A DNA stretch of 45,610 nucleotides, taken from the NCBI GenBank assembly GCA_016764955.1, contig JAESQZ010000056.1, positions 1-45,610 on the forward strand, given 5' to 3'. The position numbers were made by a program, and so were the translations under genes. The notes beneath the pieces are model-generated. The model did not search any database, was not told the origin of the DNA, and saw only the letters and a list, made by a program, of their open reading frames with translations. Shown here piece by piece: positions 21,660-40,599 of the stretch. Position 1 is the first letter of the stretch, and each line of letters begins with the position of its first letter. The stretch comes from Deltaproteobacteria bacterium (GTDB lineage: Bacteria; Myxococcota; UBA727; JABDBI01).

Positions 21660-21668
21660 GAACTATTC
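21660..21668 (-). promoter_or_regulatory. GAATAGTTC box
   Basis: Minus strand reads cGAATAGTTCtct, 29 nt from the ATG at 21630, with T/A-rich cttaattacataa between. Confidence 0.55.
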
Positions 21669-21944
21669 GTTAAACATTTGTTTGGCTAATTTTTCTAATT
21701 CTAGAGAGTCTTTAGGATGATTAAATCTCTGGGTTTCATCAATCATCCTAGATTGAATTGCTAGAAATTTCTTGATTAACATGATGTCTTCTTTAGAGTC
21801 ATAAGTTGCTTGTTTAATTGCTGTAAAACATTCAGTTTTTTTCTTTATGAAATAAATTGCCAATGCTGAAATTACTGTTCCTATAATTCCTGCAATTACT
21901 AGAATGAATGATTGAATAAAATTTTCTAACATGATGAAACTCAT
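21663..21944 (-). CDS. membrane protein with one N-terminal TM helix
   Basis: 93 aa with FILVIAGIIGTVISALAIYFI. The start may be the in-frame ATG at 21932 (see the box at 21961). Confidence 0.6.
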   Translation of the reverse strand: MSFIMLENFIQSFILVIAGIIGTVISALAIYFIKKKTECFTAIKQATYDSKEDIMLIKKFLAIQSRMIDETQRFNHPKDSLELEKLAKQMFNE

Positions 21945-21960
21945 ATTTTAAATAATTAGA

Positions 21961-21968
21961 GAACTATC
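21961..21968 (-). promoter_or_regulatory. GAATAGTTC-like box
   Basis: Minus strand reads aGATAGTTCtct. It is 16 nt from the ATG at 21944 but 28 nt from the in-frame ATG at 21932. Confidence 0.45.
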
Positions 21969-21969
21969 T

Positions 21970-23736
21970 CTAAGAATCAACTAGAACGTTATCTGTATCA
22001 GCTAGAGAAGTTCCTGAAGCATTAACCAAAACACATCTTACAGTGATTGAATCTCCTGGACTAAAAGCTCCTTCTCTAATTACCTCAACTTTGTTTTCTA
22101 ATGCATTTAGATCATCAGAGGGAGGTTGGTTTCTAGAATATGAATTGGCTATAGTTGTAGTTCCTGTATCATAAATTGTATCAAAATATTCCTGAACACT
22201 TGATTGTAATCTCCAAGTTACTAGAGCTATCTCATCTCTTGTAGGTGAATCAGGATAAGTAACTTTGATTCGGATTTGTCCTGTTGCTGGAGAAGTGACT
22301 GTTAGAGTTGGTTTAGATGGTGTAGATAGTGTTCCAGTGGTATCACTAACAATAGTCGAGAATGGTCCATTCACTTGATTTTTTAGAATTCTTGCATGTC
22401 CGTAAAATAATGTACTTTCAACTTGTGATTCAGTTTCAAAAATTACATTAGTTTGGCCTGTCACTCCAACAGGTCGAGTAATTTTTGTACTTCCTCCCTG
22501 ACCTGTAAAGCTCCCATTGCCATCTACTGCATTTGATAAATTCCATTCAACCTCAGCTATGTTAATTCCTGCCTCAAGTGTTACTGTAAATTTTAATTTA
22601 GTTCCTACATTCTCAAAAACTACTGTAGGAGCTGCAAGAGCTGAAGTTGTAGCACTAGCTAGTATTGTACTAATTAGAGTCCCAAATTCATTTCTGACTT
22701 CAAAAATATAATCATGTAATGTATTTGGAGGAAGAAAATCATCATCATACGTGTTTGTTACTCCCGAAGATGGAGTATCATCTTTCACTACAGTCTCTAA
22801 AGGAATTCCCAAGTCTCTAATCAAAGTGAACCGTAATTGTTTTCCAGTAGGTTGAGTCCATGAAGCCCTTATTGTGTTAAAATCAAGTGCTGTAACTGAG
22901 AATCCTACATCTCCTGCATTGTATGAACCATCAGTGTTAGTTTGGAGTGGTCCAATATAATCAGAATTGCCAACGTCATTTTTTGCCCTTACCCAAAAAT
23001 AGTATGTAGTTCCTGCAGATAATCCATTTACAGTAACTTTGGTATCAGTCAGATTTTTTGTTGCAGCATCAGTGATAGGAGTATCTGGAACTCCGTTAGT
23101 TTCTGCAGCAGAGAGAGAATATTCCACATCATAAGTTAATGGAAGACTACCTATTGCTGAAGGATCCCATAAGATATCTATTGTAGTATCAGTGTGTCCA
23201 GATGAGACAACGTTTAGAGGAATAGTTGGAGCTAGCTCAGATTCATCGTTTTTTTTTGTAGTTCCAATGTTGATAGTAGATTGGTCTGTACTCCAAAATG
23301 ATATGTCAAGAAAATCATTAACTGCAGTAACTATCAAAGGACTACTTCCAATTCCTGAAACTATGGTTCCTCCAAGTGTAATGATTGGATCAGTTGAGCG
23401 AATGTGTAATCGTATAGTACATAATAGTAATGTTGGAATGTGTGCAAATGTTATAGTTGTATTTCCATCTACATTCCCTGTAAGTTGTCTATCACTGTGA
23501 ATTCCAAAATCAATTACTAGAGGATTTGTAATATCTCCAAGTTCTGAAATTTTTAATGGATTTGGATTTATGTTTGGAGATCCTCCGTCTACTGATTCAC
23601 TTCCAGAGCTTCCTATTCCTCTTGCAGATTCTGATCCTCCTATTTTTAATGATTCAAGTAAATCTCGATTGTTTTTCTTTTGGAATTTTATGATTCTTGA
23701 TTCGGTATTTGTTTGTCTAGTAGCTCGAGTTGACAA
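21970..23736 (-). CDS. tail fibre/adhesin with fibronectin type III-like domains
   Basis: 588 aa, TTG start. FN3 pattern at residues 169-264 (TIDILWDPS...TYDVEYS...LSAGTTYYFWVRAKNDVGNSDY), then a second similar unit (IRASWTQP...HDYIFEVRNEFG). Confidence 0.6.
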   Translation of the reverse strand: MSTRATRQTNTESRIIKFQKKNNRDLLESLKIGGSESARGIGSSGSESVDGGSPNINPNPLKISELGDITNPLVIDFGIHSDRQLTGNVDGNTTITFAHIPTLLLCTIRLHIRSTDPIITLGGTIVSGIGSSPLIVTAVNDFLDISFWSTDQSTINIGTTKKNDESELAPTIPLNVVSSGHTDTTIDILWDPSAIGSLPLTYDVEYSLSAAETNGVPDTPITDAATKNLTDTKVTVNGLSAGTTYYFWVRAKNDVGNSDYIGPLQTNTDGSYNAGDVGFSVTALDFNTIRASWTQPTGKQLRFTLIRDLGIPLETVVKDDTPSSGVTNTYDDDFLPPNTLHDYIFEVRNEFGTLISTILASATTSALAAPTVVFENVGTKLKFTVTLEAGINIAEVEWNLSNAVDGNGSFTGQGGSTKITRPVGVTGQTNVIFETESQVESTLFYGHARILKNQVNGPFSTIVSDTTGTLSTPSKPTLTVTSPATGQIRIKVTYPDSPTRDEIALVTWRLQSSVQEYFDTIYDTGTTTIANSYSRNQPPSDDLNALENKVEVIREGAFSPGDSITVRCVLVNASGTSLADTDNVLVDS

Positions 23737-23765
23737 TGAATTAGATCAGAGTGAATAAGTTTAGA

Positions 23766-23774
23766 GAACTATCC
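23766..23774 (-). promoter_or_regulatory. GAATAGTTC-like box
   Basis: Minus strand reads GGATAGTTCtct, 29 nt from the TTG start at 23736. Its TAG is the stop codon of 23769..24272. Confidence 0.5.
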
Positions 23775-24272
23775 ATAAAGCCTGTTAGGATATTTATCTA
23801 AAAATATTTTATAACATTGAGGATCTTCTTGTGCTGTTTCTTTAGACATTACACCTCCAAGTTGATAGTTCCTTAATTCAGGAGTGGTTTTTTTGTCAAG
23901 AGAATCAAAATAATCAATAAAGATGGATGCTCTATAACCATCATCAAGCCAATCTCCATTACTAGCAGCGTTCAAAAAGGATTCACGTTCTTCTGAAAAA
24001 TTATCTAAATACCATTGAGAAGGATTTGGTTGTTCATACTCTATTCTCTGAACAAGATACACATCACAAACAGAATCAATAGGCCAAGTATTTGTAACAA
24101 AATTCAAAGTAGATGTATCAAATTCAATAGATTCAGAGATTGATTCATCTACATTAGTAAACAAAACAACTCCTACAATTACAGCTATAATTAGAGGGAT
24201 TGAAGCTAGTTTCATGTTCATGCTCAAAATCAAGCGATCTAATAGAAAAACAATGCTATTCAACTGGACCAT
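23769..24272 (-). CDS. membrane-anchored protein
   Basis: 167 aa with N-terminal TM ASIPLIIAVIVGVVLF. Overlaps the upstream gene by 13 nt. Confidence 0.6.
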   Translation of the reverse strand: MVQLNSIVFLLDRLILSMNMKLASIPLIIAVIVGVVLFTNVDESISESIEFDTSTLNFVTNTWPIDSVCDVYLVQRIEYEQPNPSQWYLDNFSEERESFLNAASNGDWLDDGYRASIFIDYFDSLDKKTTPELRNYQLGGVMSKETAQEDPQCYKIFLDKYPNRLYG

Positions 24273-27200
24273 ACTCTATTAATCAAATGTTCAGTTTGTC
24301 TAAACCCTCCAGGAGCTCCATCGCCTCCTTTTGAGATAGAAATGAAATTGTTATCTACAACCATTTTGATAGTGTTTGCCTTCCCATCAGTTGTATCATC
24401 TACAGCTTCTGAATCTTCATAATATACTGAATCACCCCAACCCACATCATTAGAAAATTTCTTTACAATTGGGAATTCATCTTTTTCATGATTTAGTATT
24501 GGAACCAAATTTCTAACTAGATTTTTAGCTTGAGAGTATGATACAACATCAGGAGCTGAGATTAATTCACTAGGAATATTTCTATCAGGTTTGTTATTTT
24601 CATCATCCACGTTAGTAACTACAAGAGGTTTTGTTAATCTAAAGCCATCAATTGAAAGTGTTAGTTCTGATGAACCTGTAAATCTTGATAAATTGAGAGG
24701 GTTTGGATCAGTCAAAAAAGTTCTGAATCGGTCATCTTGATCAAATGATTCAGCAGTTTCAATTCCTCCTCGTCTTACTTTTTCAAAGTCAAATATTTCT
24801 AAAACTTCAGGCTCATTGGCTCGAATAAAAGTAGATATTCCTGGAACTGAATGTTGAATCTTTCTTTTTCCGAGTGAAGCTGTTAATGGAGTTGCAGAAC
24901 CTCTTTTCTTTTGTAGATAATCAATTGTTATTTTATTATCATTCTCATCTACTAGCCAAATTAGCATTTTATAATTTCCAGTAGGTCGAGGAAGTAAACC
25001 TAGAAAAACTTCATCAATTTTTTGGAAAAATGCAAATCCTTGAATGTCCATATAATCCTCAACTCCTGGACCAAACCATTCCTTTTTCCCCAAGTGTGTT
25101 TTGTGTTTGTTTAGAAAATCAATTACAGATAGAGAAATTTTTTCTCCAATAGTTACAGTATTGTAAGGAATAAAATTCTCATTTCTTGGCATCATTGCAG
25201 TCCAATTGAGTCCTGCAATTTTTTTAGAATCTGCTGTATCAGGTTCAAATTGGATAAACACTGCTGAATTAGAATCTACATCATCTTCTGAAATTTTTGA
25301 ATTTCCAACTGCAACTCGTCCAGCACCTACATCAAATTTCACAGGATGAACACAGTCAAATTGTCCGTTAGCTTGGAATACTGCTGCTGCACCTATGATA
25401 GTATAAGCACCTAATGACCAAACTCCAGATCTAGCTCCAGTACAAGTTCCATCAAGATTCAATCCAGTAAGACAATGATTGTATGTCCAAGAATCACCTT
25501 TTTCATAATCATACACCTCATCATCATTTGTTGCTGCTCCCCAATGCTCCAGGACAAACCACACTCCAGTAGTTCCCAATCCTTGAGGATCTCTAAACAC
25601 TGCAATTGTATTATCAAAGATTAATCCATTATCATCAATTGCAGCAAAGTCATTTAGTCCCACTCCATTAACTAGAATTCTTAATCCGTCAATTGGATAT
25701 CTTGTTCCTCCAATCAATTTTTTCAGGTGTACTGGAATGGATGCAGAGTCAAGATACACTCCATCTACATCAGTTCTAGGATGGTTTTTGTCTTTGATAA
25801 TACTATTATGATCAATGTAGGCAGTCTTTCCATTGTTTGTATTTGCATCAACATAGCCTCCAAGTGCATTAATCCAATACTGAGCGTTGCCTTTAGTTTG
25901 TGGAGAGTAGTCTGTAGTTGGAACAAAATTAATTCTAACCCAAAATGAATCATTGGCAGGCTTGTTTCCTGAAGATGAAGTGTGAGATTGTAATGCTTCA
26001 TAGGCAATGTCTCCAACTTTGATAATATCATAAATTGTGTATGATGTAGCAGTTACCCAATCAACAGCTTTTGTAAAAAATCTTTGAATCCATAGTGTAG
26101 TAGCTACTGATGGGTTTTGTCCTGCAGTGGAGGAATGATCAGATTTTGCCTCATAAGTTAAATTGTTATGTTTTAGTAAAATTCCTTTCAGATAGGATTT
26201 GTCTTGTTCCCAAAGTTTAGTTAATCTAAATGCATCTTTAGCTCCTTGAAATTTAGCATACGCATTTCCAAGAAAATCTCCAGAATTTTTATCACAAATT
26301 ACTATAATGTTTGTAGCCTCTTCAGGTTCTTCGTTTGAATCAAGTTCCAAAGTGTTTGATGTGTAATCATTTAATGCTGATTTTTTTAGTGTTACATTTG
26401 GAGTGCTAGTAAATGCTTCAGTAGGACTAGCTGTCAATGTAATTTCTGGAGGAGTAGTATATCCAGTTCCAGGAGTATCTACTGTAATTGATGTTACTTT
26501 TCCTCCAGTCAATACAGCAGTAGCAGCAGCTCCAGTTCCCCTTCCTAGAATAGTTACTGCAGGAGCAGAGGAATATCCTTCTCCCCCATTTACTACTTTG
26601 ATTGATGCTAATGCACCTGATGAAACCTTGGAAATTGCTCTAGATGTGTGGAGATTATCTTGAAATCCCTGCTCTGCAATTTGTATCACACAGTTATCCA
26701 AATCAAGGCCTGTAGCGTGATTATACAGAGACTGGAATCTCCAATAATGAAATTCTCTACTTCCTCCTAGTTCTGGAACGTTTCCCTCAATGTCTACTAT
26801 ACTATCCATAAAATCCTCAAATGGAATAGCTTCTGCTATGTAATTGTTTGAGAGTCTATCATTTAGTCTACTGCCATGTTTTTTTAATTTGTTAAATGTT
26901 GCAGGAAAAACAATTTCAGGATCTTTTGTTCCTTTATTTTCAGGACTGTTAATTTGATTCACTGCATTAATTGCAGCTTCTTCTCCTGAGATTCTTCTGT
27001 TAGGAGTTGATATTGATACAATTGCTTTGAGTCGATTTGATGTTTGATGAGGACACCACAAAGTTAATTGTAATCCATTTTTCCTATCTTTCTTTTTTAT
27101 TCTTACATGAACTACAGTTTTGAATTGTCGTCCAGATTTGCTAGTAGTTTCAATATAGATACGGTCCCATTTTTTTATTTTTGCATGTTTTGTAATGTAT

Positions 27201-27301
27201 TTTCCTCTAGGAGCATTTAGAATAATTTTAATTGCAATTGGAGATGTGTCATTAATTTCTACAACTTTACAATCATCACTAATATCAAAATCTCCATTCA
27301 C
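24260..27301 (-). CDS. large tail-tip/baseplate adhesin with CBM5/12-like repeats
   Basis: 1013 aa, GTG start preceded by GGAG. Residues 239-290 hold GGEGYSSAPAVTILGRGTGAAATA and GTGYTTPPEITLT. Residues 364-454 hold two W..Y..GD..Y.A...H...G..P....W units typical of CBM5/12 carbohydrate-binding modules. Confidence 0.6.
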   Translation of the reverse strand: MNGDFDISDDCKVVEINDTSPIAIKIILNAPRGKYITKHAKIKKWDRIYIETTSKSGRQFKTVVHVRIKKKDRKNGLQLTLWCPHQTSNRLKAIVSISTPNRRISGEEAAINAVNQINSPENKGTKDPEIVFPATFNKLKKHGSRLNDRLSNNYIAEAIPFEDFMDSIVDIEGNVPELGGSREFHYWRFQSLYNHATGLDLDNCVIQIAEQGFQDNLHTSRAISKVSSGALASIKVVNGGEGYSSAPAVTILGRGTGAAATAVLTGGKVTSITVDTPGTGYTTPPEITLTASPTEAFTSTPNVTLKKSALNDYTSNTLELDSNEEPEEATNIIVICDKNSGDFLGNAYAKFQGAKDAFRLTKLWEQDKSYLKGILLKHNNLTYEAKSDHSSTAGQNPSVATTLWIQRFFTKAVDWVTATSYTIYDIIKVGDIAYEALQSHTSSSGNKPANDSFWVRINFVPTTDYSPQTKGNAQYWINALGGYVDANTNNGKTAYIDHNSIIKDKNHPRTDVDGVYLDSASIPVHLKKLIGGTRYPIDGLRILVNGVGLNDFAAIDDNGLIFDNTIAVFRDPQGLGTTGVWFVLEHWGAATNDDEVYDYEKGDSWTYNHCLTGLNLDGTCTGARSGVWSLGAYTIIGAAAVFQANGQFDCVHPVKFDVGAGRVAVGNSKISEDDVDSNSAVFIQFEPDTADSKKIAGLNWTAMMPRNENFIPYNTVTIGEKISLSVIDFLNKHKTHLGKKEWFGPGVEDYMDIQGFAFFQKIDEVFLGLLPRPTGNYKMLIWLVDENDNKITIDYLQKKRGSATPLTASLGKRKIQHSVPGISTFIRANEPEVLEIFDFEKVRRGGIETAESFDQDDRFRTFLTDPNPLNLSRFTGSSELTLSIDGFRLTKPLVVTNVDDENNKPDRNIPSELISAPDVVSYSQAKNLVRNLVPILNHEKDEFPIVKKFSNDVGWGDSVYYEDSEAVDDTTDGKANTIKMVVDNNFISISKGGDGAPGGFRQTEHLINRVWSS

Positions 27302-27369
27302 ATCAGCTCCTACATCTTCAGAGTGATCTTTTAAGATAACAAGACATGTATCCCCTACATTATTTGTTA

Positions 27370-27378
27370 GAACTAATT
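27370..27378 (-). promoter_or_regulatory. GAATAGTTC-like box, off-pattern spacing
   Basis: Minus strand reads AATTAGTTCtaa, 68 nt from the GTG start at 27301. This is the weakest copy. Confidence 0.25.
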
Positions 27379-27897
27379 TGAATCACCACGATCTACTTTT
27401 AGTTTCAAAACAAATTTTGCAATGTTTAGAATTAAATTAAAATCCCAATCCAAGCTAACCCATAACAAACCAATCTGAGTATTCCCCGAAGAGACTGGAG
27501 TCAATTTATATTTTTTAACAGTGTTTAATTCAAATCCAAATCTGCCATGAATTATTTGTCCATCTATTACATCTAGATTGTCTTCCCAAGATTCCATTAA
27601 ATCAATAGTCGCATTAGATTGAGTTCCATCTCCTGAAGCATCAAGTGTGCCATCCATGAAGGGAACCACGCCCTCAATTGTGTAGAATTCCCCTAGTTCT
27701 CCTTGAGGTTGTTGATCTCTAGTTCCTTGACCTAATGCCTGATTTCCTGAAATTGCTTTAGGCCTAGTATGATTAACTCTAGTAATGTAGGCATTACCTA
27801 CAGCATCCACAATAGCATCATTGAAGAGTATTCTCTCAGTAGTTCCAGAACCAATGACATCATCCTGATTGAATAATTTGTATATAGTATCAGTCAT
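27373..27897 (-). CDS. virion structural protein (tail/baseplate candidate)
   Basis: 174 aa and beta-rich, sitting between the tape-measure-like protein and the large adhesin. Confidence 0.55.
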   Translation of the reverse strand: MTDTIYKLFNQDDVIGSGTTERILFNDAIVDAVGNAYITRVNHTRPKAISGNQALGQGTRDQQPQGELGEFYTIEGVVPFMDGTLDASGDGTQSNATIDLMESWEDNLDVIDGQIIHGRFGFELNTVKKYKLTPVSSGNTQIGLLWVSLDWDFNLILNIAKFVLKLKVDRGDSN

Positions 27898-28502
27898 TAG
27901 TTTACATTTTTCCTTATCTTGAAATCATTTTCTAGAAGTTTTCGGTCACTTTCAAACACTTCAAAAGAGTTGTATTGGTTTCTAACGTTAAGATCTCCAT
28001 CAATTGTAGAAATAATTAATTGATCAAAGCCTTGCAAAATTCTTTGAAGTTTATCTTTATCTCGTAATGCATCAGTTCTGTTATCGATTCTATCATCAAA
28101 GAATCGGTCAAGCAAATTTCCTTCTTGTTGTAAAAATTCAATTACTTTGGCTGCGACTACAGGAGCTCCTATAATTGCTGCAGGAAGAGCTCCAGTTTTT
28201 AATAATTCTTGTAAGATTGCACCTGATGGATTAGTTGCATAGTTGAGTAAATTTTGACCTTTTCTAAATCCTAAATCATTTTTTAATACTTCATCTATCT
28301 TTGATTGTTTTTCTGATTTTTTCTTTTTTCCTTTTTTGGTTCCAGTTGTTGTTCCTGTTTGAGTAGAACTAGATTCTTCTATAACATCTGATTTGTCAAT
28401 AATTTCTTTAACTTCTTCTTTTACTTTCTCTACAATTTTTTCAATCTCTTTGACATTTTCTACTCCAGTAGTAGAAACATCAAGAGGGATTCTAACAGTC
28501 AT
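27897..28502 (-). CDS. short tape-measure-like protein candidate
   Basis: 201 aa. N-terminal coiled coil, a T/K-rich linker (TGTKKGKKKKSEK) and a hydrophobic segment GALPAAIIGAPVVAAKVI. Assigned by position and composition only. Confidence 0.45.
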   Translation of the reverse strand: MTVRIPLDVSTTGVENVKEIEKIVEKVKEEVKEIIDKSDVIEESSSTQTGTTTGTKKGKKKKSEKQSKIDEVLKNDLGFRKGQNLLNYATNPSGAILQELLKTGALPAAIIGAPVVAAKVIEFLQQEGNLLDRFFDDRIDNRTDALRDKDKLQRILQGFDQLIISTIDGDLNVRNQYNSFEVFESDRKLLENDFKIRKNVN

Positions 28503-29026
28503 TGAATAGAGTTCTCCTGGAGGAATCGGTTAATTTTACTAGTTAGTACATCAAGAAATCTTTCTAATCCAAATTTGAAACCATTTGACATTATTTTCAT
28601 GGCTCTAATTCCCTTAACCCAATGGCCTTTTGAGAATCCAGTTACAGTAATTGCTCCAGATTGAATAGGGAAAGCTAGAACTCCATCAGGATCTAGAGGT
28701 TCAATAAAGTGAGTAACTGTTCCATCTTCAAAATAATCAGCTAGAGGAACTACACTGCCTAAAGCATCCTTTGAGGGTTTGGAATAATCATTAATCACAT
28801 CACCTTTGAGAAATCCATTTTTCTCAAATGATATGGCATCAAGATAACCTTGTTTCATTCCTGCTGCACGAGCTACAGTTTTACATGATTCTAGAATTGT
28901 CTCCTGTACTGTTTCAATCATTATAGAATCAGCGAATTCCTCAACTCTAATTTTAGCAGAACCTAAACGCATCTCTGCAAATTCTAGCTGTAATTCTAAC
29001 TTGCCTAGTAAAATTTCAAGTTGCAT
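28499..29026 (-). CDS. structural module protein
   Basis: The track start at 29059 overlaps the upstream gene by 32 nt. An in-frame ATG at 29026 lies just after the upstream TGA. 175 aa. Confidence 0.55.
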   Translation of the reverse strand: MQLEILLGKLELQLEFAEMRLGSAKIRVEEFADSIMIETVQETILESCKTVARAAGMKQGYLDAISFEKNGFLKGDVINDYSKPSKDALGSVVPLADYFEDGTVTHFIEPLDPDGVLAFPIQSGAITVTGFSKGHWVKGIRAMKIMSNGFKFGLERFLDVLTSKINRFLQENSIQ

Positions 29027-29027
29027 A

Positions 29028-29462: not shown

Positions 29463-29491
29463 GTTGGATAATTATGATTTCAATAATTAGA

Positions 29492-29500
29492 GAAGTATTC
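29492..29500 (-). promoter_or_regulatory. GAATAGTTC-like box
   Basis: Minus strand reads tGAATACTTCtctaattatt, 29 nt from the ATG at 29462. Confidence 0.55.
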
Positions 29501-30563: not shown

Positions 30564-30592
30564 ATATTTAAAAAATCAATTTACTTTTTTTA

Positions 30593-32816: not shown

Positions 32817-32855
32817 GATGTATCAGAATTCATTGAAGCGAACTCTGAAAACATG

Positions 32856-33176: not shown

Positions 33177-33267
33177 TTTTTCGATAACCTCATGAAATAT
33201 TTATCAGATACATTTGAGATGTTAATTTTACGACCTAAAGTATGTCTTCCAATTTCTTTCCATCCGC

Positions 33268-33621
33268 TCATTTTTGTTTCAACTCACACAAATTTCCACA
33301 CTGACACATTCTAAGAACTATTTTCCTTCCCTTGATGATGTTTAATCTAGAGATGAATCCCTCCTTATGGATTCTTTGTGTCCCTGATGAATGACATTTT
33401 TCACATTTCCACACTGATAAATTAATGTAGAGATAGCATTTCAGGCAGTATCTTTGTAGTGGGAAATTAGGATTGTTTTGTAAATGTTGAATTATTCCAA
33501 AGTGAGTTCCATGATTACACCTTGAACAGTATCGAGGATTCATTATGTCAATTACAATGTAAGTCATACCAAGACAAACCAATGATAATAATTCCAGTAT
33601 TGTAAAATTCAGTAAATCCAA
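33268..33621 (-). CDS. membrane-anchored zinc-finger protein
   Basis: 117 aa with N-terminal TM LLSLVCLGMTYIVIDI, then CSRC, CLKC, CEKC and CQC clusters. Confidence 0.55.
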   Translation of the reverse strand: MDLLNFTILELLSLVCLGMTYIVIDIMNPRYCSRCNHGTHFGIIQHLQNNPNFPLQRYCLKCYLYINLSVWKCEKCHSSGTQRIHKEGFISRLNIIKGRKIVLRMCQCGNLCELKQK

Positions 33622-33622
33622 T

Positions 33623-34102
33623 TTAATCAGTACTCAATGCTGAAATATTGGAATCTACTCCATAATCTCCTGATTGGTCGTTGATGTTATCTATTCTTGT
33701 AATGCCTGCATCTGGACTAGGAACAAACTTTGCCACCATTTCTCCACGATTAGGAGCATTTGCAGATCCTATTGTTCCACCAAGTATTCTATCTGCCATC
33801 ATTAATTTTTCTTCACCTGAAATACTACAAACATATTGAACTTCAAACTTGTCATTTGCATAAGCAAGTGGTTCATCAATAATGGTTTGAGAAACTTGTG
33901 TACCATCTCCACCTCCATTTGAGGCATTTCTTTGAGCATATACAGAATTAGAGTTGTTATTGTATCTAATCGAATGACTGATATTTCCAGAAGCAATACT
34001 ATGAATTAAAAACATGTTGAACTTTTTTGCAGTTAAATCTGTTATTTGCATTACATCACCAGCTACAGTTAAAGTAACAGTTTCATTTTTAGCCCAGCCC
34101 AT
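33623..34102 (-). CDS. single-copy member of a triplicated beta-rich domain family
   Basis: 159 aa with VYAQRNASNGGGDGT ... GSANAPNRGEMVAKFV. It parallels both halves of 34102..35169. Confidence 0.6.
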   Translation of the reverse strand: MGWAKNETVTLTVAGDVMQITDLTAKKFNMFLIHSIASGNISHSIRYNNNSNSVYAQRNASNGGGDGTQVSQTIIDEPLAYANDKFEVQYVCSISGEEKLMMADRILGGTIGSANAPNRGEMVAKFVPSPDAGITRIDNINDQSGDYGVDSNISALSTD

Positions 34103-35169
34103 TAGTCAAAACCCCACACTTTACCAATTGAGCCAGCAGCAAAATCTCCTGCTTCATCGTTATAGATAATTACTCTATCTGCTTGACTTACAGCATTAGC
34201 CCATTTCCCTACAAATTCAGAACGTTGTGGAGCATTAGCTGCTCCTGCTCCGCCTTGGTCCATCCAATTCCCTGTTACAAGTTTTTCATGTGTAGCATTA
34301 TTTACAATAAAGAAATTCTGAAATTGTGGTACTATTGATGCCAAGTTCTGTGAATTAATAAAATCTAAATTTGTGTTTAGTTGTTCTGCACTATTATTTT
34401 GACTCCTTCTATTTGCATAATTAGTTCCTGTATCTTCACTTCCAGCACCCATTCTAATATTTGGTCTTGCACGTCCACCTGTTGGATTTATCCAGCATTT
34501 AACCCATAGATATTTTTTAGCTGTAAATGGTAAAGTTATTTTATCTGCAGTTGCACCTAATTCAACACTTGCTAATTCCTCCCAGGAATTATTAGTATGT
34601 ACATCTGCTGGGTCCCATCCCAGAACAACAACTTGTGAACCTGTTGCAAAATTCCCTGCGGAGACATTAGCATCTAGATAATTAACCTCATCTAAGGGGT
34701 CTACTGTATTTGCCCATTTGCCAGCAATCTCATATCGTGTTGGTGCAATTCCAGCACCTGTACCACCTCTATTAGTGACCATGTGCATATGGAGTAATTT
34801 TTCCACTGCTGCTAAATTAGATAAATAAAATACTTGGAACCACTGATCTCCTGTACCACCTAATGTATCTGTAAATATACTCGATATGCCTGTTGTAGTT
34901 CCATCAGCACCCCCATCTTGTGAAAATCTTCTTGCATAATTATTACCAATATCTGAATTAAATCTAGGAGTAGGCATAGGGTTTGTTGTATTTAGTAAAT
35001 GATGTGCCAAAATCATATAGTATCTTTTATTAGGTAAACTTGAAACGTCGATATTATCTCCTGGACTTCCTAAAGTACCTCTACCCAGTTCAACCCATCC
35101 ACCTACTGCAGAAGGTAATTGAGAAACTAGTGTTCGAATGTCTGGAGCAACCTTAACTAAATTTACCAT
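34102..35169 (-). CDS. two-copy member of the same beta-rich domain family (fibre or decoration candidate)
   Basis: 355 aa with an internal duplication: NYARRFSQDGGADGT...GAGIAPTRYEIAGKWAN and NYANRRSQNNSAEQ...GAANAPQRSEFVGKWAN. Confidence 0.65.
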   Translation of the reverse strand: MVNLVKVAPDIRTLVSQLPSAVGGWVELGRGTLGSPGDNIDVSSLPNKRYYMILAHHLLNTTNPMPTPRFNSDIGNNYARRFSQDGGADGTTTGISSIFTDTLGGTGDQWFQVFYLSNLAAVEKLLHMHMVTNRGGTGAGIAPTRYEIAGKWANTVDPLDEVNYLDANVSAGNFATGSQVVVLGWDPADVHTNNSWEELASVELGATADKITLPFTAKKYLWVKCWINPTGGRARPNIRMGAGSEDTGTNYANRRSQNNSAEQLNTNLDFINSQNLASIVPQFQNFFIVNNATHEKLVTGNWMDQGGAGAANAPQRSEFVGKWANAVSQADRVIIYNDEAGDFAAGSIGKVWGFD

Positions 35170-35199
35170 GTAACATTACCTAAAAATTATAGAAAAAAG

Positions 35200-35208
35200 G
35201 AAGTATTC
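35200..35208 (-). promoter_or_regulatory. GAATAGTTC-like box
   Basis: Minus strand reads gGAATACTTCcttttttctataa, 30 nt from the ATG at 35169. Confidence 0.5.
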
Positions 35209-35412
35209 CTAGTAGTAAAGATTGGAAGGTCCTGGATGAACTGTACTATCTTGTAGTCTTTTTGATTCTAATTCTGCAGTATCTGCAGGGTCTGTAAAAT
35301 TCTCAGAGCTTAAACTAATACAAGATGTTTCAGATCTTTGTATCTTCTCCATTGGAAATTGTTTTCCCTGTAATGTATATTCTAAAAATTTAAAAAACTT
35401 TCGAACTTCCAC
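35209..35412 (-). CDS. hypothetical protein
   Basis: 67-aa ORF on the coding strand. Confidence 0.45.
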   Translation of the reverse strand: MEVRKFFKFLEYTLQGKQFPMEKIQRSETSCISLSSENFTDPADTAELESKRLQDSTVHPGPSNLYY

Positions 35413-35762
35413 TAGTGACTCACTTTAGCTGTTTCTGGATGATCTTTTGCTTCTGCTGCTTTGTAATCTATAACATTAACAGATTCATCTTTTCTTTCCA
35501 ATGCTTCTTTAGCTTCTCTGCTTTGTGCTCTGAGTCCTTCTCTGCAATCATCACATTGATTTCTTGTGTCATTGTAGAAACTAGTTCCTTCCACTTCAGT
35601 TATGCCACAAAAAGATTTTCCACCTTTGAAGTAATGAGTTAGAGGGATTTCATATTCTCTAATGCCTCTTTGTTTCTGATCAATCTTTATTGTTTTTAAT
35701 TGAGCATTTGGAAGTTGTTTCCATCCGTCAGTATCAGAGTTGTAATTGTAGATGCGGATCAA
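35412..35762 (-). CDS. hypothetical protein
   Basis: 116-aa ORF containing CDDC. Confidence 0.55.
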   Translation of the reverse strand: MIRIYNYNSDTDGWKQLPNAQLKTIKIDQKQRGIREYEIPLTHYFKGGKSFCGITEVEGTSFYNDTRNQCDDCREGLRAQSREAKEALERKDESVNVIDYKAAEAKDHPETAKVSH

Positions 35763-35764
35763 TT

Positions 35765-36358
35765 TTAGACTCTCCTCATTTCGTGATTGATGAAGAACTT
35801 TAGGGTGTCAGTTGCAGTCTTGTTAAAGGGTGTGATTTGTCCATGTGTTAGTAATTTTGATGCATTAACTGGAGTTCCATTATCTAAAATTGCAAAGTTT
35901 TTGATTGTAACTCCTCCATCATTAAAGTCACCAGTTGTATAACTAGTGAGAAATGATAGAATATCCACTCCAGAGCCTGTATTATCACCATCTGCATCAT
36001 TCCTATTAGGATAAGTTGCATCATACACTTTGTTTGAGCCAGCTATTGCTTTTGCAGTATTATCGAATTGCAGCCAGGTGTCAGTTGCAGCAATTGCAGT
36101 TTGAACAGCAGGATTTGCTAGCTGCATCCTGCTTGCTGCTGGTGCAAAAAAGTCTTCATTTACTACAGGAGCTTCACTTGCTCCCTCTTGAGCATAAGCA
36201 ATTTCACCATCATTGGTGATTTGGTTCATTCCAATAATCCATTTTTTAGCAGTTGCTGTTCTCTTTTTGATCAAGTCTAGTTTGAATGATAGTGGTAAGT
36301 CAGGTCTGATGAAATATTTTAATTTCTGCATTGCTGAATATTTTGGGTCAACATGCAT
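35765..36358 (-). CDS. virion structural protein candidate
   Basis: 197 aa, located in the connector/neck region. Confidence 0.55.
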   Translation of the reverse strand: MHVDPKYSAMQKLKYFIRPDLPLSFKLDLIKKRTATAKKWIIGMNQITNDGEIAYAQEGASEAPVVNEDFFAPAASRMQLANPAVQTAIAATDTWLQFDNTAKAIAGSNKVYDATYPNRNDADGDNTGSGVDILSFLTSYTTGDFNDGGVTIKNFAILDNGTPVNASKLLTHGQITPFNKTATDTLKFFINHEMRRV

Positions 36359-36366
36359 TTGAGGTC

Positions 36367-36558
36367 CTACAAAATGATAGGATTTCTCAATAATTCCCTC
36401 TTCAGGTTTGGTGATTCTAAAACTGCAACAACGTTCCAGTTAAGGGCGTTGTACATGTTTCGTTTTATAAAATTTGGACGTTTATCATTATTTGATAGGA
36501 ATCTTTCAATTCTTGCTTGAACTGATTCTAATTCTACTATTTTTAATTGCTGTAACAT
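36367..36558 (-). CDS. hypothetical protein
   Basis: 63-aa ORF on the coding strand. Confidence 0.5.
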   Translation of the reverse strand: MLQQLKIVELESVQARIERFLSNNDKRPNFIKRNMYNALNWNVVAVLESPNLKRELLRNPIIL

Positions 36559-36586
36559 GAATCAGGTATTGTATCAAGTATTAAGA

Positions 36587-36595
36587 GAATTATTC
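36587..36595 (-). promoter_or_regulatory. GAATAGTTC-like box
   Basis: Minus strand reads tGAATAATTCtcttaata, 28 nt from the ATG at 36558. Confidence 0.5.
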
Positions 36596-36603
36596 ACAAT
36601 AGC

Positions 36604-37032
36604 TTAGAAATCTTCAGTTACAAAGATTGAAGCTTGACTTGGAAGAACAATTTTTGCATCTCGAGGATCACTAGTTACCAGGACTGCTTTTGTTTTGTCA
36701 TTTCTCCTAGACTTTAGTTCTGTGATTATTGTTTCAATTTTCTCATCGTATAATTTCTCGTATGTCTCCATTCTTTTTAGATCCAATAATTCCTCATCAG
36801 CCCAAATGAATTTTGCATATCTTAGTGCTGCAGTTCTACAGTGAGAATAAATTGCATCTCCTCCGTCTACTGGAGTGATAATAAATGAGTTGATTGCATT
36901 GTCTAACTGTTCATTAGAACGATCAATAATTTCAATTAACTTATCATCGTGAGCTGTAATTTCATTAAGTTTTAGAGAATGTTTTAGATATGCAATAGTA
37001 AGAAATGGAGTGTAGATTTGCTCTGAAGACAT
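36604..37032 (-). CDS. head-tail connector (gp6-like adaptor) candidate
   Basis: 142 aa. The N-terminus (TIAYLKHSLKLNEITAHDDKLIEIIDRSNEQLDNAINSF) resembles the usual adaptor opening. It lies two genes after the capsid gene. Confidence 0.45.
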   Translation of the reverse strand: MSSEQIYTPFLTIAYLKHSLKLNEITAHDDKLIEIIDRSNEQLDNAINSFIITPVDGGDAIYSHCRTAALRYAKFIWADEELLDLKRMETYEKLYDEKIETIITELKSRRNDKTKAVLVTSDPRDAKIVLPSQASIFVTEDF

Positions 37033-37061
37033 GAATTAATTCTTGTTTGGAATAGTAAAAG

Positions 37062-37069
37062 GAACTATG
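37062..37069 (-). promoter_or_regulatory. GAATAGTTC-like box
   Basis: Minus strand reads tCATAGTTCcttttacta, 29 nt from the ATG at 37032. Confidence 0.45.
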
Positions 37070-37071
37070 AT

Positions 37072-37260
37072 TTATCCTAATCCAAATTTCTTGTTTAGTT
37101 TGGCTTGTTGAACATCTAGTCTTTCATTTACTTTTTTATACAAAACTTGTTCATCATATTTCTCATAGTTGATATTATCAGTTCCAAGACTATACAGAAC
37201 AACGTCATTAAGATTCTTAGGTGATTCTAGTCGATTACGTCTTTGTCGTCTTATGCCCAT
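37072..37260 (-). CDS. hypothetical protein
   Basis: 62-aa ORF directly after the capsid gene. Confidence 0.5.
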   Translation of the reverse strand: MGIRRQRRNRLESPKNLNDVVLYSLGTDNINYEKYDEQVLYKKVNERLDVQQAKLNKKFGLG

Positions 37261-37310
37261 GATTAGTAGAAATGATAAAAATAAAGTAAAATAGAGTTTG
37301 TAAAAAACCT

Positions 37311-38438
37311 CTATGGTGTGACTGGAATTGTCATTCCAAACTTTCTTGTAAGTTTGGTGATTTGTTTGTCAGTGGATAGATACTGATTAAAGTCCAACAT
37401 TTTGATGGCTTCAGCATCGTGCTCTTCGTCATAGTAACGTCTCATGATTTTTGCACCTTCTCCCTTTCTGAGAGCGTTTGGTTTGTTTACTGCGTAGATT
37501 GTATTTGCAGGGATTGAGACATCTACAATGGCAGTAACACCGTTGATTCCTGGTAATGGAACAACGCCTCCTCCAGAGAGTCTAATTGGATTCAAATCTA
37601 GTGGTCCAGATTTAGTCCAGGTATTCTCACTGAATTCAGTGAATAGTGTTGTATTCATGGCTACATGAGTGATTTTCACGTCATTGGCTTTCAAGAATGT
37701 ATTGAATAATTCATTGAGTTCTTTGGCTGCGTGATTATCTGAGTGAAGATTTCCAGAAGTTATTTTCTCAAACTTTCCTATGGCTGATTGTGAGTTTCCA
37801 ATGTCTTTTAGTGCCAAGAGTGCTTTTTGGTTTCTTTGATACTTGAAACCCCATCTCAATTGACCTAAGTCAATATCTTGAGGATTGATGATGGTTCGCA
37901 TCATGTCCTCAATTGGAGTAAAGACTTTGTCAACTAGTTTCTTGAGGTCATACTTGATTTCATCGTAGACAGTTTTGGTGGTCTTTGCGACTTCAAGTCT
38001 ATCAAGGTATCTAGCTGTTGCAGTCGTATCATAGAATGGCTCTCTGCCTTCTAACATTGATACATCACGTTCAACAAACATTTCATCTAACCAAAAGTAT
38101 TCATCTGGAACTCCTTGAGCTTCAGGGAATAGTCTAATCATTTGTAGATGAGACATGTTTGTAGAGTTTCCAATGCTTGTAGCTCCCATCAATGCTTGAG
38201 GATTGAATTGATTTGCTTCAATCTTTGCTGCAAGTGCTGAGAGTTTAGCTACTGGAATTGTTTTTCCAACAACTTTAGCATTTAGAGGAAGGCCATAAGG
38301 ATTTTTGAATTCCTTTGCTTTCATGACATATCTTCCAATCATTGCTTTTCCTTGCGGTTGTCTATCTTCAGAATGTTCTCCTGCATAGATAGCTCCGTTA
38401 GGATAGATTGTGATTGCTTCGTGGTATGAATCGTTCAA
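37311..38438 (-). CDS. major capsid protein candidate
   Basis: 375 aa. It follows the scaffold-like and decoration-like genes in the canonical order, and its size is typical of HK97-fold or lambda-E-like capsid proteins. No search was run. Confidence 0.6.
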   Translation of the reverse strand: MNDSYHEAITIYPNGAIYAGEHSEDRQPQGKAMIGRYVMKAKEFKNPYGLPLNAKVVGKTIPVAKLSALAAKIEANQFNPQALMGATSIGNSTNMSHLQMIRLFPEAQGVPDEYFWLDEMFVERDVSMLEGREPFYDTTATARYLDRLEVAKTTKTVYDEIKYDLKKLVDKVFTPIEDMMRTIINPQDIDLGQLRWGFKYQRNQKALLALKDIGNSQSAIGKFEKITSGNLHSDNHAAKELNELFNTFLKANDVKITHVAMNTTLFTEFSENTWTKSGPLDLNPIRLSGGGVVPLPGINGVTAIVDVSIPANTIYAVNKPNALRKGEGAKIMRRYYDEEHDAEAIKMLDFNQYLSTDKQITKLTRKFGMTIPVTP

Positions 38439-38440
38439 TT

Positions 38441-38923
38441 TTATGCAACTCCCACATCGATAACTACTAAGTCACCGTCTGCTGTTACTTTCTTCTCTGC
38501 TTGATCTGTGCCTTCAGAATAAATCTCAAAGATTCTTCCCAAGTGACCTTTACCGTTTGGAGAAACTCCTGCCATTACTTTGTCTGCTGTAGTGGTAGCA
38601 GTTACTGCTTTGAGGTCTACTGCTTGGCCTACTGTAAGGGAAGCATCTGCTTTTAGAATAATTCTACTTCCAACTTTTGCTACTTGGACTTTATCTGTGT
38701 CTTCTGCTATTGGTGCTGGAGCATCAGAAATGGCTTGCATTATTCCTCTTGAGAGGTCAGCTACTGAAGTAGTAGTGATTGGAGCAATGAGTCTTCCTTG
38801 TGCATCTGGAGTGTAGATTTTGCCTTTAGTAATTGCTAAGGCATCTTTGATAATTTCGGTATCAATGTTTTGGAATTGATCATAAGGTAGATCTCCTATT
38901 CCAAGTGGTTGAACTGAAGGCAT
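38441..38923 (-). CDS. head decoration / cement protein candidate
   Basis: 160 aa, G/A/V/T-rich and beta-type (KVGSRIILKADASLTVGQAVDLKAV...GDLVVIDVGVA). It sits immediately upstream of the capsid gene, as lambda D does relative to E. Confidence 0.45.
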   Translation of the reverse strand: MPSVQPLGIGDLPYDQFQNIDTEIIKDALAITKGKIYTPDAQGRLIAPITTTSVADLSRGIMQAISDAPAPIAEDTDKVQVAKVGSRIILKADASLTVGQAVDLKAVTATTTADKVMAGVSPNGKGHLGRIFEIYSEGTDQAEKKVTADGDLVVIDVGVA

Positions 38924-38925
38924 TT

Positions 38926-40269
38926 CTAATTATCCTCCCCGAATGTGTCTTCTAGTGATTTACCAGCTAGAGGACCTGTTGATTCTCCAGGGAAATCAAA
39001 ATGAGTTGGAGTCTCAATCGTTTGACCTGATAAATTTGTCATTGTAATTACTTCATTGACTTCATCAATGGTTTTTGCTTTGAGAGAAGTTTCTAATCTA
39101 CTAACTTCTGAATCAGATAAATTATCTTTTGCTTTGAGTAAGATTGAAGCAATTAATGGTTCTTTTATTTTTGCTTCGAGTTTTTCTTTTTCCTCTTCAG
39201 TTGCTTTTCTAGCTTCTACTGCTTCGTCTTTTTCTTTCTCAGCTTCATCTTGAGCTTTCTTTGCAGCAGTGACTTTTTCATCGTCATTGTTTTCTTCAGA
39301 GGCTTTGAGTTTTGCTTCTAACTCTTTCTTTTCATCTTCTTGAGCTTTAAATTTTGATTCTAATTCTTTTACTTTTTCTTCGTTTGATTTTAAATTATCT
39401 CGAAGTTCTTTTTCTTCTGTAGCGGTAAGTGTCATATAATTTTTCGAGCATGAGCATGAACTAAAAGAACTATCAGCAGTTGATTTTTCTTTAGCCTCAT
39501 TGATAGCTCTTAACAAAGATTCTTCTGTAATTGCAATGTCATTTTCTAAATTAGCTTGCAATGTTGCAGCTATACTTTTTGTAACTGAAACAAATCTCAA
39601 TTTATCTTTGTGGCTTATTAAAATTGGAACTTGTTGTAGATGAGATAAGTTATCATCAGCTTTTAGTTGAGCTGCAGTTAATAATTTCATGTGACAATCA
39701 TTACCTTCACATATTGCTGTAATTTTTGCCTCATCACCAAATGCAGGATTTTTAGTTAAGAAAGCATCATGGAGTCCTTCCCATTCATGAACACCAAGCT
39801 TGGGAAGTCCATTTGGCATGGTTCCTAGTATGTCAAATCCTCCAGCTTCAGGCCATATACTAGGGGAAACTGAATCAACTTCTCCTGATTTTACTTTCTC
39901 TAGAAATTCTAATGGGATTGGTCCAGGCTCTAATTTGTGAATAAAAAATGCCTTGTGATCCTCATAATCTAGTGTATGGTCTACAATTGTAGTAACTCTA
40001 AACTCTTCTTGGACATTTACATTATTTTCCTTAGTGGTTCCATCAGTATGATCTAAATCACAATCAGTTCCCACACATTTTTCATATTGAATTCCAGGTC
40101 GTTCATTGTCCTGGAATGATTTGATGTGTTTGAGGATGGATTCCCATGTAGCTCTCCAACCGTTCTTGTTTCTTCTATCAGATATTGCAAATGTCTTTAA
40201 AAAAATTCCTTTTTCTCCATTAAATGAGTCAAGAACCTCAATTTCATTTGAGGCCTTGAGATATAGCAT
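38926..40269 (-). CDS. scaffold protein, possibly fused to a prohead protease domain
   Basis: 447 aa. The central-to-C-terminal part is an extreme K/E coiled coil (EEKELRDNLKSNEEKVKELESKFKAQEDEKKELEAKLKASEE...). The N-terminal 250 aa look globular. I could not confirm protease catalytic residues. Confidence 0.5.
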   Translation of the reverse strand: MLYLKASNEIEVLDSFNGEKGIFLKTFAISDRRNKNGWRATWESILKHIKSFQDNERPGIQYEKCVGTDCDLDHTDGTTKENNVNVQEEFRVTTIVDHTLDYEDHKAFFIHKLEPGPIPLEFLEKVKSGEVDSVSPSIWPEAGGFDILGTMPNGLPKLGVHEWEGLHDAFLTKNPAFGDEAKITAICEGNDCHMKLLTAAQLKADDNLSHLQQVPILISHKDKLRFVSVTKSIAATLQANLENDIAITEESLLRAINEAKEKSTADSSFSSCSCSKNYMTLTATEEKELRDNLKSNEEKVKELESKFKAQEDEKKELEAKLKASEENNDDEKVTAAKKAQDEAEKEKDEAVEARKATEEEKEKLEAKIKEPLIASILLKAKDNLSDSEVSRLETSLKAKTIDEVNEVITMTNLSGQTIETPTHFDFPGESTGPLAGKSLEDTFGEDN

Positions 40270-40297
40270 GAAATATTTGAATTAATATAAAAAAAAG

Positions 40298-40306
40298 GAA
40301 CTATTC
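40298..40306 (-). promoter_or_regulatory. GAATAGTTC box
   Basis: Minus strand reads gGAATAGTTCcttttttttatatt, 28 nt from the ATG at 40269. Its TAG is the stop codon of the upstream gene. Confidence 0.55.
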
Positions 40307-40561
40307 CTCGTCAGGTTCTACAAATGGAGGATTTCTTTTGTATTGAATTGGTTTTGTAATTGGAAAAGAGTTAGAATTTTTCTCTATTCTCTCCATTACT
40401 TCAATACAAGCTATGTTTGCAGCAATTAGATTTCCTAATTCTTTTAGAGTGTCTTTGTTTTGAGTAGCTTTTTCAAGTTCTCTAAAGACATCTTGATTTC
40501 TTCTAAATTCTCCTTTGATTGTATTCCAATTCTCAGAGAATGGCTGTAATGCTTGAGACAT
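40301..40561 (-). CDS. hypothetical protein
   Basis: The track start is TTG at 40615. The ATG at 40561 (MSQALQPFSENW...) lies 29 nt from a box copy, so I prefer it. 86 aa. Confidence 0.55.
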   Translation of the reverse strand: MSQALQPFSENWNTIKGEFRRNQDVFRELEKATQNKDTLKELGNLIAANIACIEVMERIEKNSNSFPITKPIQYKRNPPFVEPDEE

Positions 40562-40590
40562 GAGGAATGATTGTTGTAATTTAAAAAAAG

Positions 40591-40599
40591 GAATTATTT
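40591..40599 (-). promoter_or_regulatory. GAATAGTTC-like box
   Basis: Minus strand reads cAAATAATTCctttttttaaatt, 29 nt from the ATG at 40561. Confidence 0.45.

Follow-up and report, generated by a model that had tools for sequence, protein, structure and literature searches.

Why do so many genes of one 45,610-nt contig begin at almost the same distance behind the same short sequence? The contig, JAESQZ010000056.1 (the window, here always meant at its full length), carries the locus tag JKY15_02035 and the NCBI label "Deltaproteobacteria bacterium". From its letters, an initial annotation had picked out ten minus-strand copies of a short box, each at 28-30 nt from the start codon of a structural gene, and had compared them with an archaeal promoter consisting of a B recognition element (BRE) and a TATA box. 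The box is best read as an archaeal core promoter of a known kind, the variant being specific to the virus family and unusual in what replaces the TATA box. With a probability of roughly 0.8, it would serve a head-tailed virus of Nitrosopumilus as core promoter for packaging and morphogenesis genes, presumably late ones, and give rise to leaderless mRNAs.

The box and its distance to start codons

Box coordinates refer to the C of TTC, and distances to the number of bases between that C and the first base of the start codon. All ten listed boxes were present at their coordinates, with the 28, 29 or 30 nt tabulated for them. The count of ten was too low, however: about eight further copies had been overlooked, four of them beyond positions 21660-40599 (5444, 5205, 4826 and 3115). 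The window has 18 copies in total, including weaker ones that were admitted for their spacing alone (Table 1). The consensus, previously described as ending in TCT or CTT and a T/A-rich stretch, was refined to the 15-nt motif rAAwAsTTCyyTTww, using 51 non-redundant sites. The start codon followed after 29 nt at 23 sites, 28 nt at 16, 31 nt at seven, 30 nt at four and 27 nt at one. Bases beyond the search pattern were kept as well, namely A at box positions -7 (38/51) and -6 (42/51) and T at +4 (38/51). Between the motif and the C or A at -1 and the A at +1 of the start codon lie ~20 unconserved bases.

Both the word and its spacing exceeded chance. With at most one mismatch, GAATAGTTC was found 32 times in the window, compared with 16.4 ± 4.4 times in shuffles. 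A k-mer enrichment to which the motif had not been given as input returned ATAGTTC, TTCTCT and AGTTCTCT as the top intergenic words of the coding strand. The pattern [AT]A[ACG]TTC[CT][CT]T had 23 coding-strand matches in the window, and 12 of them had a start at 28-30 nt, a start being the first initiation codon with an open frame of 50 codons or more (background 1.85%; binomial p = 1.8e-15). On the opposite strand, none of 30 matches was spaced in this way.

Because the window pattern had partly been shaped by inspecting the sites, an independent test was made on the relatives. The pattern ATA[ACG]TTC[CT][CT]T, derived from window sites only, was applied to relatives only; 22 of 36 gene-strand matches stood at 27-31 nt (background 3.6%; p = 4.6e-23), as did none of the ten matches on the other strand. 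As a negative control we used 1.05 Mb of unrelated metagenomic DNA, composed of loci from a metagenome scan with Nitrosopumilus UvrB and nearly all bacterial, in which 12 of 361 matches (3.3%) were so spaced, equal to the background rate. A position weight matrix (PWM) trained on the relatives only placed nine of the ten listed sites among its top eleven coding-strand scores in the window. The site that it missed was 30593, which deviates in its 3' half.

Conservation in relatives

A total of 17 related loci were collected (L numbers below). The closer relatives, with a G+C content of 37% to 48%, all carried the box before orthologous genes and before other virion genes, and relatives in which it occupied homologous intergenic regions ranged from 33% to 48% G+C. 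This is what the initial annotation had expected of homologous intergenic regions. In an alignment of 11 loci upstream of the prohead protease gene (box 40298 in the window), AATAGTTCCTTTTT formed an island of identity, while the upstream flank and the spacer could not be aligned; after the spacer, the conserved ATG CTA TAC CT followed. The CTT or TCT type of a copy was retained at orthologous positions. L010 had the canonical TATTTAAA after its TTC. In L014 and L015, which are more distantly related, ATAGTT or ATAGCC preceded a T-run and TAG (ATAGTTTTTTTAG, ATAGCCTTTTTTAG). Judging by these three loci, what follows TT(C) appears to take the TATA position.

In IMG/VR, the exact pattern AATAGTTCCTTTTT-N19-23-TCATG had six matches, and no open reading frame (ORF) of 40 or more codons began at the ATG of any of them. 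None of these contigs had several correctly spaced copies either, and the six were taken as chance matches. A single-protein scan of IMG/VR returned nothing, and an alignment-based scan gave seven loci.

Genome and host

All protein genes of the window lie on the minus strand, and its G+C content is ~33%. The 447-aa product of the protease gene had 66 homologues in metagenomes, with the window itself among the database entries, named there as a Deltaproteobacteria metagenome-assembled genome (MAG). Homologues were also found at two places in the 1.89-Mb Nitrosopumilus chromosome OZ252092.1, in the Nitrosopumilus MAG contig JAEFCZ010000047.1, and on contigs of 0.8 and 1.45 Mb beside ordinary cellular genes. 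Bacterial signals in the window were at chance level, both for sigma-70 promoter-like sites (77, compared with 79.6 ± 10 in shuffles) and for intrinsic terminator-like sites (10, compared with 9.3 ± 3.3). Because relatives are integrated in Nitrosopumilus chromosomes and bacterial signals do not exceed chance, the host is an archaeon, the ammonia-oxidising thaumarchaeon Nitrosopumilus. The window is a head-tailed virus or provirus of Nitrosopumilus, and its Deltaproteobacteria label is probably the result of wrong binning. No match was found among GenBank phages, either by megablast of 20 kb or by tblastn of a 375-aa window protein.

The window had few matches in PHROGs and Pfam, those to tail, baseplate and fn3 families being weak. 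The 600-aa protein encoded at 384-2186 is orthologous to a protein of ~600 aa encoded ahead of the portal gene in relatives, and it is presumably the large terminase (TerL); the window protein had no family match. The 579-aa protein at 43606-45345 would be the portal protein, a name given by position, as its ortholog lies directly upstream of the protease gene in relatives. L002 is colinear with the window across both contig ends (TerL, junction, portal), and an HNH-like ORF runs through the junction. For these two reasons, the window looks like a complete, circularly permuted genome of 45.6 kb. A 19-nt repeat, TAAAAAATACAAAAAGAAG, is present at 45610-45592 and at 146-128.

Two further observations concern the genome and its relatives. 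A tRNA-Phe gene (GAA; 8747-8821) lies on the plus strand, opposite to all protein genes, in a 383-nt gap. L004 (OZ252092.1, 908419-928778) and L005 belong to one Nitrosopumilus chromosome, which has a second, truncated protease gene (126 aa). The truncated gene retains a box 28 nt upstream and looks like another provirus remnant.

Anatomy of the proposed promoter

The position of the refined motif agreed with the proposed geometry of a BRE followed by a TATA box. The motif spans -38 to -23, has its purine-rich half upstream and is followed by a pyrimidine-purine step. The upstream half, rAAwAs, occupies -38 to -33, with A in 38, 42 and 51 of the 51 sites at three positions. When the start codon is taken as the transcript start, the conserved element at -31 to -24 reads TCyyTTww, with C at two to three positions, and it ends 22-23 nt before the ATG.

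For comparison, 20 cellular or cellular-looking genes in the flanks of proviruses were inspected. They had A/T-only elements at the same position (e.g. AAAACTTTTATTG, ATAGTTTTTAATG, AGCTTTTTATAAAA, AAAGTTTAATATA), and the box was absent from all 20 of these promoter regions. The flank elements are of the type AAAnsTTTwAwA and have the AAwAsTT half (AAAAG/ATAGTT) in common with the viral motif. By this comparison, the part of the motif that appears specific to the virus family is the C-containing TTCyyT.

In the proposed mechanism, rAAwAsT would lie where TFB reads the BRE and TCyyTTww where TBP binds the TATA box. Transcription would be initiated at a purine behind a pyrimidine, 29-30 nt downstream of the C of TTC. 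This purine would usually be the A of the ATG, giving a leaderless mRNA that requires no Shine-Dalgarno site. At TTG starts, the transcript would begin at an A one base upstream, and a few copies would produce a leader of 15-40 nt with a Shine-Dalgarno site. The later genes of each short operon would be translated via Shine-Dalgarno sites of their own. The promoter would take up nearly the whole spacer of 31-48 nt, its TAG or TAA often being the stop codon of the upstream gene.

Start codons and Shine-Dalgarno sites

Among 77 start codons of the window, box and Shine-Dalgarno site were mutually exclusive. With GGAG or GAGG at -16 to -4 as the criterion for the latter and 27-31 nt as the criterion for the box, no start had both, 15 had the box only, and 31 of the 62 others had a Shine-Dalgarno site (Fisher p = 2e-4). 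Genes inside the operons carry GAGG or GGAG. Over the 51 sites, C stands at -1 in 26 and A at +1 in 43, which makes up the pyrimidine-purine step. The box-led mRNAs are best read as leaderless, as predicted from starts that lack a Shine-Dalgarno site behind this conserved step.

Departures from the usual arrangement kept the step in place. TTG starts read TCA TTG, so that an A is held 28-29 nt from the box; at 23766 the local sequence is TTCA TTG, and the transcript is predicted to begin with the A immediately before TTG 23736. In the copies inside the protease gene, a TCA lies two bases ahead of the ATG, likewise at 29 nt from the box. The copy at 27370, rightly noted before as off-pattern, has a predicted transcript start at ~27340, followed by a 39-nt leader and GGAG ahead of GTG 27301. 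Two boxes of L009 (15547 and 20850) are leadered likewise, with leaders of 15 and 17 nt and GAGGA or GAGGAG. A pyrimidine-purine step is present 29-30 nt behind TTC in all three leadered copies, and together with the leader and the Shine-Dalgarno site it explains the odd position of 27370. The TCA TTG context, the TCA of the internal copies and the leadered exceptions thus fit a transcription start and not a translation signal.

The spacing had also been used to choose between alternative start codons. The preference for ATG 40561 over TTG 40615 is supported by the L002 ortholog, which starts three residues before the aligned QALQPFS. The choice of ATG 21932 over 21944 agrees with the spacing, but the spacing is its sole basis, no ortholog having been found.

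Distribution over the genome

When the window is read as a circle, the sure copies all fall into the packaging and morphogenesis module, in line with the earlier idea of one promoter class shared by virion genes. They occupy a single stretch, from 5444 down to 1 and then from 45610 down to 21630, with small genes, terminase, HNH gene, portal, protease-scaffold gene, probable capsid gene, and head-completion and tail genes in this order. The class may be called late, judging by its gene content. The remaining 16 kb (5.5-21.3 kb) encode an MT-A70 methyltransferase, a PAPS-reductase-like protein, a HerA-like ATPase and small proteins. This region has at most one weak box candidate, at 18599; its promoter-like elements are A/T-only instead, as seen before 20247 and 7036.

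A different sequence was seen in front of non-structural genes. The octamer GCCTAGAT abuts the ATG of three of them, at 7037-7044, 8645-8652 and 18397-18404 on the minus strand (starts at 7036, 8644 and 18396). In L014, a similar CAGCAGGC[CT]AGATT precedes two starts.

Within the module, the box-bearing intergenic spacers are mostly 31-48 nt long, and the box often touches the upstream gene. As noticed before, the TAG of the box doubles as the upstream stop codon, which we saw at 21660, 23766 and 40298. A TAG immediately precedes the box at 21961 and 35200, and a TGA covers the first two box bases at 29492.

Table 1 Copies of the box and the protease-scaffold gene in the window, in descending order of position.
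Feature	Sequence	Positions	Strand	C of TTC	Distance and start codon	Remarks
Box variant	TATTATTTC TCTTTAAG	45526..45541	-	45533	29 nt to TTG 45503	Weaker, T at the s position
Box variant	AAGTAATTC CATTAAAA	40892..40907	-	40899	28 nt to ATG 40870	CTC abuts ATG; weaker, CAT for yyT
Box	AAATAATTC CTTTTTTT	40584..40599	-	40591	29 nt to ATG 40561 (86 aa)	PWM score 18.1
Box	GAATAGTTC CTTTTTTT	40291..40306	-	40298	28 nt to ATG 40269	PWM score 20.6
447-aa prohead protease with helical scaffold-like C-terminal part		38926..40269	-			Foldseek on AlphaFold model
Internal box	TGATAGTTC TTTTAGTT	39460..39475	-	39467	31 nt to in-frame ATG 39435	Within the 447-aa gene
Box	TCATAGTTC CTTTTACT	37055..37070	-	37062	29 nt to ATG 37032 (142 aa)	
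Box	GAATAATTC TCTTAATA	36580..36595	-	36587	28 nt to ATG 36558 (63 aa)	
Box	GAATACTTC CTTTTTTC	35193..35208	-	35200	30 nt to ATG 35169 (355 aa)	PWM score 21.1
Box	GAATAGTTC TAAAAAAA	30586..30601	-	30593	29 nt to GTG 30563 (186 aa)	3' half departs from yyTT
Box	GAATACTTC TCTAATTA	29485..29500	-	29492	29 nt to ATG 29462 (144 aa)	
Box	AATTAGTTC TAACAAAT	27363..27378	-	27370	GTG 27301 (1013 aa)	Leadered; tail or baseplate-like protein
Box	GGATAGTTC TCTAAACT	23759..23774	-	23766	29 nt to TTG 23736 (588 aa)	fn3-containing tail protein
Box	AGATAGTTC TCTAATTA	21954..21969	-	21961	28 nt to ATG 21932	
Box	GAATAGTTC TCTTAATT	21653..21668	-	21660	29 nt to ATG 21630 (100 aa)	PWM score 20.1
Box	GGCAACTTC TTTTCAAT	5437..5452	-	5444	28 nt to ATG 5415 (68 aa)	Weaker, PWM score 9.2
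Box	CATAACTTC TCTATTAC	5198..5213	-	5205	28 nt to ATG 5176 (68 aa)	
Box	CTAAAGTTC TCTATAAT	4819..4834	-	4826	29 nt to TTG 4796 (123 aa)	Context TCA TTG
Box	AATAACTTC CCTTTGCA	3108..3123	-	3115	29 nt to GTG 3085 (54 aa)	PWM score 15.0

TTG 45503 opens an ORF of 52 codons, whose stop overlaps the portal ATG at 45345; this arrangement of box and ORF is kept in L002. A candidate at 45518, found with the first PWM, was dropped in favour of the conserved copy 15 nt upstream (45533). Matches at 44565 and 44320 lie within the portal gene and were judged to be conserved coding sequence, not promoters. ATG 40870 opens just 20 codons before a TAG, and a 63-codon frame without a start codon (40811-40623, minus strand) follows in a different frame. 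Both frames of the 40907-40623 region are coiled-coil-like in composition, and the break between them could be a frameshift, an indel error or the mark of a decayed gene.

The protease-scaffold-capsid operon and its internal box

The box at 40298 heads an operon for the protease-scaffold protein, a 160-aa protein and the 375-aa protein, which is probably the capsid protein. The N-terminus of the protease, MLYLKA, is conserved. Searching the PDB with a sequence profile yielded nothing informative, and the match came from a fold search. The AlphaFold model has a confident N-terminal domain (residues 1-175), a disordered linker (265-282) and then long helices. The N-terminal domain matched the capsid assembly protease gp21 of T4 with a Foldseek probability of 1.00 and a target-normalised TM-score of 0.62.

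The linker contains both the internal box (39467) and Met279, the residue encoded by ATG 39435, which opens the C-terminal 169 aa. In eight orthologs, the internal box was found at the same alignment position. Over nine orthologs, only 9 of the 98 conserved degenerate columns used a single codon; two of these columns, Ser (TCT) and Phe (TTT), are neighbours and together supply the TTCTTTT of the box, and four other conserved Ser columns used two to five codons. The frozen Ser and Phe codons therefore point to a constraint on the DNA itself. This suggests that the internal box may act as a promoter within the gene, from which the scaffold part, as a nested gene, would be transcribed into a nearly leaderless mRNA of its own.

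At the other end of the operon, a run of six T residues stands right after the stop codon of the 375-aa gene (TAG AGG TTTTTT; 37261-37310, minus strand). It is a candidate archaeal oligo-T terminator that would end the protease-scaffold-capsid operon. The next small gene (MGIRRQRRN..., start at 37260) has a proper box in L006 and L009 and a degenerate one in the window.

Weighing the alternatives

Several points speak against the box being an ordinary core promoter. Its TATA equivalent, TCyyTT, has a conserved C, which is unusual for TBP sites. As the conserved C residues are absent from the 20 host promoters, recognition by the ordinary basal factors is not assured; that comparison covered provirus flanks, and some host genes may use the box too. 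TTG and GTG at a 5' end are poor leaderless starts in the archaea studied so far, and three box genes of the window have one of these two codons right at their predicted 5' end. The copies at 45533, 40899, 5444, 5205 and 4826 score no better than chance matches, their spacing alone admitting them. The SFSxCxCS peptide at the internal copy could be kept for protein reasons.

The peculiar half of the motif has an explanation if AsTTCyyT is the site of a dedicated regulator over a weak core promoter, either a viral activator or repressor or a particular host TFB or TBP paralogue. The box would then set the timing of the genes, or silence them in the provirus, which is compatible with a promoter and refines it. 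TTCyyT is near-invariant in the family, while the 20 host promoter regions with the AAwAsTT half lack it, and the copies are confined to one module. Among the relatives there are integrated proviruses, where these genes have to be shut off, and some copies form the short palindrome AGGAA-TAG-TTCCT. The palindrome is not conserved, however, with G at box position -8 in 18 of 51 sites, and a palindromic operator GAA-N3-TTC was ruled out as a general reading because its left arm is not conserved. In addition, Pfam revealed no TFB or TBP homologue and no clear DNA-binding domain in 40 window proteins, and L010, L014 and L015 have an ordinary A/T-rich element at the same position. We consider such a regulator unlikely, if worth keeping in view. 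The T-rich copies (TTCCTTTTTTT) raise another matter, since archaeal RNA polymerase terminates at oligo-T tracts: these copies might combine the terminator of the upstream gene with the promoter of the next and so insulate modules, while TCT-type copies would let polymerase read through. Six to eight T residues follow TTCC at 40298, 40591 and 35200, boxes begin 0-12 nt past the upstream stop codon, and the two types are retained between orthologs. Yet half of the copies, those of the TCT type, have no T-run, and it is the distance to the downstream start that is fixed, whereas that to the upstream stop varies and reaches hundreds of bases at 40591 and 4826. A double role of this kind appears quite improbable.

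The box might instead act in RNA, on a long polycistronic message, as a re-initiation or enhancer element or as a processing site that creates leaderless ends. Termination-reinitiation elements of such a layout exist in eukaryotic viruses, and the fixed distance to starts without a Shine-Dalgarno site, directly after upstream stops, would suit them. However, nine of ten intergenic regions folded no better than shuffles (z -0.8 to +1.4), which led us to reject an RNA structure at the box, and the only Rfam match in the window was the tRNA. Genes farther down the same operons rely on ordinary Shine-Dalgarno sites. Where a leader is present, the box is 40-46 nt away from the start codon and there is a Shine-Dalgarno site, which fits a transcription start but not a translation element, and the geometry and the pyrimidine-purine step match archaeal promoters. 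Action in RNA is thus very hard to credit. Hardest of all to credit is that the window is a phage of a bacterium, as the NCBI source name of the contig would have it, with the box as a -35-like element of a phage-specific bacterial promoter. Its relatives are integrated in Nitrosopumilus chromosomes, sigma-70 and terminator signals do not exceed chance, the -10 position lacks conservation across the 51 sites, and GenBank phages include no relative.

An archaeal core promoter therefore remains our preferred reading. A stronger form of it holds that the non-canonical promoter cannot be used by general TBP and TFB alone and depends on a dedicated factor (a TFB paralogue or a viral protein), that the internal box produces an intragenic scaffold transcript, and that the T-rich form is also a terminator. 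We regard this form as tentative and rather doubtful. If a dedicated factor does exist, the box genes would make up a sigma-switch-like late-gene regulon, the first to be described in a thaumarchaeal virus.

Significance for thaumarchaeal viruses

To our knowledge, ammonia-oxidising archaea lack a genetic system, none of their promoters has been mapped, and metagenomes are the only source of their head-tailed viruses. In the literature searched, we found no transcript-start map and no promoter consensus for Nitrosopumilus, and no description of the box. The word "promoter" is absent from a survey of integrated elements in thaumarchaea (PMC6563490).

A family-wide promoter model would give transcript-start predictions at the level of single bases. 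The box improves the annotation of start codons, operon boundaries, small genes and the nested scaffold gene, and it can serve as a marker for the virus family and its proviruses in mis-assigned DNA. The combination of a host-like BRE half with an unusual TTCyyT half bears on how promoters are divided among the many TFB paralogues of these archaea or assigned to a viral factor.

Comparison with known promoter systems

The closest counterparts are the BRE/TATA promoters of leaderless archaeal genes, as in Saccharolobus and Haloferax and in the thaumarchaeal amoA/B/C (PMC3379541). They and the box have in common a purine-rich element that adjoins a T-rich 8-mer, the latter centred ~27 nt from the start. 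In the thaumarchaeal amo genes, which are predicted to be leaderless, the TATA box and part of the BRE lie 23-24 nt upstream of the ATG, compared with 22-23 nt from the end of the TATA equivalent to the ATG here (PMC3379541). Also shared with archaeal leaderless promoters are the pyrimidine-purine step and a start codon at or beside the predicted 5' end, and with leaderless systems the first genes without and internal operon genes with a Shine-Dalgarno site. In contrast to the canonical archaeal TATA box, which is A/T-only, TCyyTTww has a conserved C, and the 15 nt of the box are far more uniform than the host flank promoters.

Virus-specific promoters have precedents in archaea, among them the T-promoters of SSV1. 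In SIRV1 and SIRV2, Kessler et al. reportedly described in 2004 a TATA-like box followed by a conserved GTC trinucleotide. There, as in the window, a near-identical core promoter stands before many genes of a single archaeal virus and has an extra signature beside the TATA position. The differences are the phylum of the host, the place of the signature (TTCyy at the junction of BRE and TATA, GTC after the TATA box) and the confinement of the box to the morphogenesis module.

A similar logic is known from T4, with late promoters of the form TATAAATA (gp55/gp33) and middle promoters with a MotA box at -30. In both cases, a short consensus at a fixed position marks a class of virion genes and departs from the host standard at the position of a basal element. 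The machinery is bacterial in T4 and would be archaeal here, and the class described here is known from sequence alone.

The nested gene, too, has parallels. Protease and scaffold genes are nested in tailed phages such as lambda (C/Nu3) and P2 (gpO), and there, as here, the scaffold is the in-frame C-terminal part of the prohead protease gene with an internal start. In lambda and P2 this is an internal translational start with a ribosome-binding site on the same mRNA, whereas the intragenic box of the Nitrosopumilus virus suggests a separate, nearly leaderless transcript.

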